A DNA stretch of 64,000 bases from sequence record MZ726792.1. One strand, 5' to 3'. A model generated the notes under the pieces. The model searched no databases. It had not been told where the DNA came from and was given only the letters and a program-made list of their open reading frames with translations. Positions 60,585 to 61,002 of this stretch are shown one piece after another (position 1 is the first letter of the stretch; every line of letters starts with the position of its first letter). Both the position numbers and the translations under genes were made by a program. Source of the DNA: Escherichia phage vB_EcoM_ASO1B.

Positions 60585-60659
60585 ACTTTAGTTGATTGTT
60601 AAGTTGTTTGTAAAGAACCCTCAACAGAAGACTCTTTAGAAACTTGGTAGATTTTTAAC

Positions 60660-60960
60660 GTGGCTACTACCATCCACCCATACCTCACCTCACTTAACCT
60701 CACCCTACCACACCAGACATCACCTTACCATACAGCACCTTATTAAAAGACCCTCTTAAAGACCTTTTAAAAAGGTAAGTCTCATTTTAATGTAGCTGAG
60801 ACTAACTACCCGCACTTTACCGCACCGGACCTTACCGGACCGCACATCACCGCACTAAACCAGACATCACATTACCTGACCACACCAAACCAAACATCAC
60901 ATTACTTAAAAACCCTCTTAGAAGACTCTTAAGTGATGTTGGTGAGTACCCGTTGGTTTA
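60660..60960. repeat. second copy of composite intergenic repeat (ACC-rich short repeats, shared 33- and 45-bp blocks)
   Basis: shares ACTTAAAAACCCTCTTAGAAGACTCTTAAGTGATG and TTATTAAAAGACCCTCTTAAAGACCTTTTAAAAAGG with 59340-59520. Confidence 0.65.
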
Positions 60961-61002
60961 TGCTGCTCAGTATACTCACCAAATTTTCTATGTCAACAAC
61001 TT

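Follow-up and report, generated by a model that had tools for sequence, protein, structure and literature searches.

An intergenic pentamer-repeat region of a Felix O1-like phage most probably encodes the upstream guide RNAs of a type II VIPR system

The DNA stretch analyzed here, in the following called the window, comprises 64,000 nt from Escherichia phage vB_EcoM_ASO1B (MZ726792.1), a myovirus of the Felix O1 type (Felixounavirus). The region of interest (60570–61002, region B) is located between the DNA ligase gene (61003–62106) and the gene at 59982–60569/60584, both on the minus strand, which confirms the placement given in an earlier sequence-only reading of this DNA. The latter gene encodes a 195-aa protein and is followed by a gene for a 146-aa protein, and both are bracketed by region B and a second intergenic region at 59147–59538 (region A). 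Next to region A lies a gene for a 127-aa secreted-looking protein (58763–59146, minus strand), and the minus strand is the direction of the local genes throughout. With the gene names introduced below, the gene content around the arrays consists of the ligase gene, vipr, vap1 and a gp86-like gene. Over the 4.5 kb around 60570–61002, many phages of E. coli and Salmonella show 92–94% identity, and the closest phage record for the repeat region is that of Salmonella phage SeKF_63 with 99.8% identity. In public records these regions are mostly unannotated. Small “hypothetical protein” ORFs are annotated within the arrays of Citrobacter phage Mijalis (locus L004, 2530–2664 and 2904–3053), and in phage fjerdesal (locus L001, 2809–2841) part of one repeat tract is labeled as “repeat_region”. 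The repeats are not mentioned in the Felix O1 genome paper or in the other Felix O1 literature searched, and the Rfam search yielded no family match, with sub-threshold snoRNA noise at E > 2.

The repeat search identified a 97-nt repeat family that occurs four times, twice in each region (59279–59375, 59416–59512, 60681–60777, and 60843–60939), as well as a 62-nt family with three copies, so that region B is indeed a paralogue of the element at 59153–59538, as had been proposed. The repeat string quoted in that proposal, ACCGCACCGGACCTTACCGGACCGCACATCACCGCAC, is present at 60819–60855 on the plus strand. A search with the period-5 ACC pattern ACCNNACCNNACCNNACC, allowing at most one mismatch, gave 30 matches compared to 0.11 expected from shuffles, all of which fall within 59275–59464 and 60682–60896. 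Period-5 autocorrelation across the whole 64 kb flagged four tracts and no others. The unit of these tracts is a pentamer that reads DGY-NN on the minus strand and “ACCNN” on the plus strand, with three fixed and two free positions. The “ACCGCAC/ACATCAC units” described in the sequence-only reading are thus real repeats, but they had been read on the wrong strand and present the complement of a GGY-NN pentamer code. Base frequencies were obtained from 490 pentamers of 11 phages (the window and ten related phages), which were picked by a rule that required GT and tolerated single misses and which therefore biases the frequencies of positions 2 and 3 upward. Position 1 is G in 74%, T in 14%, A in 11%, and C in 0% of the pentamers. 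Position 2 is G in 99%, and position 3 is T in 93% and C in 7%, both inflated by the GT selection rule, and positions 4 and 5 take any base. The tolerated misses are of the type GC, and GA and GG do not occur. Where the flanking genes of the phages share ~93% identity, the NN dinucleotides are essentially randomized, and the tract lengths among relatives differ by multiples of 5 nt.

Several readings of such a pattern were considered and rejected. A Rho rut site on plus-strand RNA was discarded because RC takes the place of YC as the invariant dinucleotide and a plus-strand promoter is lacking. A Shine-Dalgarno-like 30S decoy array is at odds with the lack of constraint on positions 4 and 5 and with one tract that does not resemble a Shine-Dalgarno sequence. 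A G2-quadruplex or R-loop origin leaves the conserved T and the tolerated UGU and AGU triplets unaccounted for, and a primase site cluster was rejected as there is no cryptic nucleotide. A Chi-like recombination hotspot was rejected since exact Chi is absent and the pattern recurs in phages of many hosts, and translated small ORFs, as annotated in phage Mijalis, were rejected because coding is incompatible with a period of 5.

Each of the regions A and B consists of two modules, in which a box hairpin is followed by a pentamer tract of 12–19 units and by a 34-nt pseudoknot tail. We designate the tract and tail of each module as a vrRNA, following the nomenclature explained below. On the minus strand, the module of vrRNA-B1 comprises an alpha box (60893–60940), a tract of 19 DGY-NN pentamers (60812–60906) and a tail (60778–60811), and that of vrRNA-B2 comprises a beta box reading CCUUUUUAAAAGGUCUUUAAGAGGGUCUUUUAAUAAGG (60738–60775), a tract of 12 pentamers (60680–60739) and a tail (60646–60679). 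In region A, the module of vrRNA-A1 has a beta box (59473–59511), 13 pentamers (59410–59474) and a tail (59376–59409), and that of vrRNA-A2 has an alpha box (59333–59375), 14 pentamers (59273–59342) and a tail (59239–59272). A fifth box (gamma, 60606–60643, minus strand) follows the last upstream vrRNA and precedes the ribosome-binding site of vipr. The boxes were delimited by RNA folding and motif search. The box 5′ of each tract, which is present in front of all vrRNAs of this clade, is AT-rich and conserved, has the core GUCUU-N2-8-RAGGGU and folds into a 12–14-bp hairpin with several G.U pairs; the corresponding DNA motif GTCTT-N2-8-RAGGGT has five matches, all at this locus, compared to 0.39 expected. 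In the alpha box of B1, the stem is rich in G.U pairs, measures 14 bp and is built around GAGUCUUC-UAA-GAGGGUUU, with ACAU/AUGU as a further, outer stem, and the beta box reads TTAAAA-18-TTTAAT. An alpha-box variant with an insertion of ~25 nt occurs in four relatives (L001, L004, L008, and L009). The boxes and tails that are shared between the copies are specific sequences, so that the objection that the copies might share only low-complexity similarity does not hold.

The four tail alleles follow one common H-type pseudoknot design with a stem 1 (S1) of 4 bp, a stem 2 (S2) of 5–7 bp and an A-rich loop 3. The tail of B1 pairs as GUAG/CUAC in S1 and AGUCUCA/UGAGACU in S2, that of B2 as GUGG/CCAC in S1 and GGUAG/CUACC in S2, and that of A2 as AAGG/CCUU in S1 and GGCAG/CUGCC in S2, and the S2 of A1 is AAUCGGA/UUCGAUU with one G.U pair. 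Alignment of the tails revealed that 88 of 88 cells pair in the B1-type tail, whereby three pairs are compensatory relative to the AAUCGGA/UYCGAUU allele, and that both stems of the B2-type tail are compensatory relative to the allele with AAGG/CCUU and GGCAG/CUGCC. Pairs changed on both sides number three in the one tail alignment and four in the other, and the tail pairing amounts to 100 and 96% compared to 24–48% when the partners are slid. In region A of phage LF110P4 (L008), the second tail combines the 5′ arm AATCGGA with the 3′ arm TGAGACT, so that stem 2 cannot form; this chimeric tail looks like a recombinant of two tail alleles within the loop.

Directly past the ligase stop codon, a sigma-70-type promoter P1 is predicted on the minus strand (60969–60996, TTGACA-16-TATACT), which matches the consensus in 11 of 12 positions. 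Its sequence from the -35 to the -10 element is identical in 10 of 11 homologous loci, and in FO1a the -10 element differs by one base (TATGCT). P1 is presumed to start the transcript of the upstream vrRNAs and vipr-vap1. The -10 element and start region of P1 are bracketed by a 9-bp inverted repeat, TGGTGAGTA/TACTCACCA (60940–60948 and 60973–60981), which most relatives retain, a single base being changed in its right arm in L005 and in the spacer in L004, L006, and L008. From its sequence, this inverted repeat looks like an operator. A gene for an HTH regulator (58257–58556) is located 2.4 kb downstream of it. An intrinsic-terminator-like hairpin (AGCCUCUUCGGAGGCU followed by U5; 59505–59527, minus strand) stands after vap1 and in front of the downstream vrRNAs. 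A second, AU-rich 13-bp hairpin with a U run (59185–59238, minus strand) overlaps the -35 element of a predicted promoter P2 (TTGACA-17-TATTTT) of the next gene (58763–59146) and may end the downstream vrRNA array. We infer the roles of the promoter, the terminators and the 5′ boxes from their sequences, and the proposed order on the minus strand would be P1, two vrRNA genes, vipr, vap1, the terminator and two further vrRNA genes (59239–59474).

In a search against solved structures, the 195-aa protein matched PDB entry 36pp (36pp_D), “SUSP1 Vipr protein”, with an E value of 6e-128. It is identical to SUSP1 Vipr in 191 of 195 residues (98%), and the 146-aa protein is identical in 145 of 146 residues (99%) to the SUSP1 protein encoded downstream of vipr. 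The genes are therefore named vipr (59982–60569, minus strand), for the RAMP-like guide-binding protein, and vap1 (59539–59979, minus strand), for the Vipr accessory protein. Eight of the nine residues that are named as GGY contacts in the preprint text are kept (H17, E71, M72, R138, C173, D177, W178, and R179). The residue T175, which the text of the structure preprint names as restricting the Y3 pocket, corresponds to V in the window protein as well as in the SUSP1 protein from GenBank, and is probably a numbering or typing slip. Vipr has no Pfam family and matches phrog_4652.

An exact scan of IMG/VR with the pattern (GGTNN)6GGT found at least 120 contigs. Multi-array clusters with up to 18 high-complexity period-5 tracts are present in 33 of them, and in 27 of these 33 a Vipr homologue adjoins the arrays on the G-rich strand. 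The arrays are thus tied to the 195-aa protein independently of any publication. In several IMG/VR contigs (L108, 3232–4392; L030, 2216–3404; L019; L062; and L020, there on the minus strand at 3395–3841 as counted along the reverse complement), vrRNA-like tracts are arranged in tandem. Such tandem tracts, up to 18 in number, are separated by short spacers only (GGCAGTT, GGCTAATG, or AAGGAATGGTTTAATGAATTTAATT) and are located directly downstream of distant Vipr homologues with 20–33% identity. Judged by these sequences, the contigs with distant homologues probably represent other VIPR types.

The VIPR system (Viral Interference Programmable Repeat) is described in two preprints (bioRxiv 10.64898/2026.04.26.720920, 10.64898/2026.04.26.720927) as a system for RNA-guided DNA silencing. 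According to their text, Vipr is a ~20-kDa RAMP-like protein, the SUSP1 clade is defined by a Vipr identity of >90%, and a vrRNA consists of 9–16 GGY/NN (YNNGG) repeats and a conserved tail at the 3′ end that, within the SUSP1 clade, takes the form of a pseudoknot. For SUSP1 itself, the preprints report vrRNAs as ~100-nt RNAs in sRNA-seq that co-purify with Vipr in pull-down experiments, vrRNA-guided repression of transcription in GFP and phage assays, enhancement of defence by vap1, and an arrangement with one vrRNA upstream and three downstream of vipr-vap1. They also state that 18 of 20 SUSP1-clade vrRNAs with identifiable natural targets hit an E. coli satellite phage, and propose VIPR as the ancestor of the CRISPR RAMP proteins (bioRxiv 10.64898/2026.04.26.720920, 10.64898/2026.04.26.720927). 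Since the Vipr identity found here lies above the >90% given by these authors, the phage is a member of the SUSP1 clade and its system is already known. We therefore consider, with a probability of roughly 95%, that this Felix O1-like phage carries a type II VIPR system of the SUSP1 clade, with region 60570–61002 as its upstream guide-RNA array. The anatomy of the locus, the identity of the proteins, the covariation in the pseudoknots and the target matches with a skip of one base (see below) are observed in this phage, whereas expression, RNP formation and silencing would apply to it by analogy with what the preprint text reports. The notion that two paralogous composite elements bracket two genes and belong functionally with them is upheld insofar as the elements encode guide RNAs for Vipr.

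By analogy with the mechanism given in the preprint text, one Vipr protomer would bind each repeat with the GGY triplet flipped out and sequestered, and the protomers would assemble into a helical filament that displays the NN dinucleotides. The dinucleotides would then pair with one strand of double-stranded DNA, whereby every third target base, usually the wobble position of a codon, would be skipped, and the resulting triplex or R-loop would repress transcription of the target, the targets being competing mobile elements. From their sequences, the guides of this phage would be aimed at genes of a ~12-kb satellite element integrated in E. coli chromosomes, which has a baseplate gene in common with the phage.

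A different role could be imagined for the G-rich transcript that starts at P1. It might form an R-loop, so that the region would be a replication origin or priming zone, in which the GGT triplets of the displaced strand would be sites for a T7-like primase-helicase. The region is indeed located in the replication gene cluster beside the ligase gene, a strong promoter is followed by a G-rich and C-poor non-template strand, and the cores of T7 primase recognition sites resemble the GGT and TGT triplets. However, any base may follow GGT, so that a cryptic nucleotide is lacking, and in many unrelated contigs such arrays adjoin Vipr homologues instead of replication genes. As every feature is also covered by the VIPR mechanism, as far as the preprint text presents it, we see hardly any chance at all that the region is an origin.

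It could also be that the repeats act in the 5′-UTR similar to a TRAP site, where an oligomeric protein would wrap the GGU triplets and attenuate or repress the downstream genes in cis. The triplets with 2-nt spacers, the number of 12–19 repeats and the long leader upstream of vipr would be in line with this, and so would the binding of one repeat per Vipr protomer that the preprint text describes. However, the conserved triplet reads GGY instead of (G/U)AG, and the search for TRAP-family domains was negative; of the four tracts, two follow the genes, past a terminator; and the NN dinucleotides carry target information, which would be needless for a pure cis-regulator. We therefore give such a cis-acting site a very slight chance. 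A genuine TRAP-binding RNA (9–11 (G/U)AG triplets with 2–3-nt spacers; PF02081) was rejected because of the GGY triplet, and the Pfam search found no TrpBP domain in the seven neighboring proteins. With the repeats as Vipr guides, autoregulation may occur as a side effect.

BLAST analysis of the locus against 5426 complete E. coli genomes identified a vrRNA-like tract with tail in 74 of them. Four of the 74 matching chromosomal loci were fetched (L131, L132, L133, and L134). Each of them contains an island of ~12 kb with a serine recombinase gene, a baseplate gene, a tape-measure gene and small ORFs; in L131 this satellite-like island spans 4869–16938 and includes an HNH gene, and equivalent islands are present in the other three loci. 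The insertion site is a DUF72 gene in three cases and lies beside wrbA in one. The protein encoded by the island baseplate gene is 88% identical to that of window position 45587–46168. A single vrRNA, equipped with a promoter and a terminator of its own, is present in each island (L131, ~14890–15120; promoter TTGACG-17-TATAAT). The islands have no vipr and thus presumably need the Vipr of a helper phage.

The NN strings of the window were scanned against these four satellite loci with 0–3 target bases skipped per repeat. With a skip of one base, A1 matches L131 at 14588–14625 (23 of 26 NN bases), A2 at 11646–11686 (23/28) and B2 at 10352–10386 (20/24, the first 10 NN being perfect). Units 10–18 of B1 match the satellite tape-measure gene (L131, 8643–8668) in 18 of 18 bases, and units 1–10 match a ~705-nt gene of another island variant (L134, 6749–6777) in 18 of 20 bases. 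B1 matches the fetched satellites as two separate halves and never as one guide, and its 19 repeats exceed the range of 9–16 given in the preprint text. From its sequence, B1 appears to be two guides in tandem, fused under one tail. Over the four satellite variants scanned, full-length guides match with 82–88% and none is perfect, compared to 58–75% over whole tracts and at most 85% on short B1 sub-tracts with skips of 0, 2, or 3. When the order was shuffled 200 times per guide, the observed score was not reached for A1, A2, and B2 and was reached once for B1. The best matches are all located inside the satellite island and none in the flanking chromosome. Among the 43 guides of 11 related phages, 26 reach at least 80% with a skip of one base, compared to 1, 0, and 0 with skips of 0, 2, and 3, respectively. 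The targeting rule with a 1-nt skip is thus reproduced at the sequence level for the guides of this phage. Within the 64-kb window no self-target was found, with best skip-1 matches of 63–73%, and scans of IMG/VR with the exact xNN patterns of guides A1 and A2 gave no match. In this way, the guides predict which satellite genes the phage would silence.

Comparison with the relatives revealed that guide number and content turn over by repeat-mediated recombination. The relatives have one to two vrRNA units upstream and two to four downstream, and the tracts of BPS15Q2 and LF110P4 that are homologous to A2 differ by whole GGTAA units. Both vipr and vap1 are absent from Felix O1/FO1a and BPS17S6. 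In the ligase–gp86 interval, FO1a (Felix O1; L003, 2823–3104) has one orphan vrRNA unit with a tail, and BPS17S6 (L010, 1711–2130) has two, each with a tail. These orphan guides had no match in the four E. coli satellites scanned. The occurrence of orphan vrRNAs in Felix O1-type phages and E. coli satellites suggests that such guides may be used in trans by Vipr from a phage that infects the same cell. The sequence-only reading had considered “co-regulation or recombination” as roles of the two copies. Recombination is visible in the relatives, but the elements are neither cis-regulatory repeats nor primarily recombination substrates: the presence of repeats leads to recombination, which is a consequence and not the function of the repeats.

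The same variation might be taken to mean that the modules are generic mobile cassettes for regulation and recombination, similar to the promoter-early stem-loop (PeSL) repeats of T4-type phages, which would supply promoters and terminators and shuffle the two-gene module. The promoter- and terminator-like elements at the edges of the regions would fit such cassettes, as would the varying copy number of the units, the missing two-gene cassette in FO1a and BPS17S6, and the one chimeric tail. However, the strict D-G-Y periodicity with free NN, the pseudoknot covariation, the arrays beside Vipr homologues in unrelated viral contigs and the skip-1 matches to satellite genes are all left unexplained, so that we regard generic cassettes as having only a slight chance of being the right explanation.

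Taking the modules as VIPR guide units, the box hairpins could be processing (maturation) signals or per-guide promoters, judged by their sequence and position. They are not mentioned in the accessible part of the VIPR preprint text. A role of the boxes, orphan guides acting in trans and the fusion of two guides in the 19-unit tract may, taken jointly, go beyond that text, which we put forward as a tentative suggestion that is somewhat more doubtful than not. Beyond the single locus, VIPR presents, in terms of the preprint text, a form of RNA-guided DNA recognition that has only recently been described, and its period-5 GGY/NN signature, which is recognizable from raw sequence, is a reliable annotation marker.

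Among known systems, the PeSL cassettes of T4-type phages resemble the vrRNA modules in that they are repeated, intergenic, carry promoters and hairpins, flank small gene cassettes and promote gain and loss of the flanked cassettes. They differ from the vrRNA modules in having no pentamer code, pseudoknot handle or dedicated binding protein. The binding sites of TRAP (trp RNA-binding attenuation protein) in Bacillus share with VIPR the conserved triplets, the 2-nt spacers and one protein subunit per repeat. Here the triplets are GGY instead of GAG/UAG and, as far as the VIPR side is covered by the preprint text, a RAMP-like helical filament takes the place of an 11-mer ring and the spacers are informational and pair with DNA.

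The crRNPs of Class 1 CRISPR-Cas systems (Cas7/RAMP) are like VIPR, as portrayed in the preprint text, in that a small RAMP-fold protein polymerizes along a guide RNA, a conserved structured handle terminates the variable guide part, bases flip out at regular intervals, and several guides are present per array. A CRISPR array in the proper sense was rejected for this locus, as the repeats are only degenerate pentamers plus box and tail modules and there is no cas1/cas2 among the neighboring genes. Unlike Class 1 CRISPR-Cas, VIPR has no identical CRISPR repeats, cas1/cas2 or spacer acquisition. According to the preprint text, it also differs in its noncontiguous guide, of which 2 of 5 nt pair with a 1-nt target skip, and in being phage-encoded and acting by silencing, not cleavage.

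The closest system is the VIPR of SUSP1. The two differ in the arrangement of the vrRNAs (two upstream and two downstream here versus one and three in SUSP1, as given in the preprint text), in the NN guide sequences, in the double-length 19-unit tract with two apparent specificities that is present here, and in the host phage, which is a Felixounavirus here and a Suspvirus in the case of SUSP1. They are the same in their proteins, with Vipr 98% and Vap1 99% identical, in the position of the locus, which is flanked by the DNA ligase gene on one side and the gp86-like gene on the other, in the GGY-NN tracts, the pseudoknot tail alleles and the promoter and box sequences, and also, as far as the preprint text reports it for SUSP1, in the predicted class of target, an E. 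coli satellite element.
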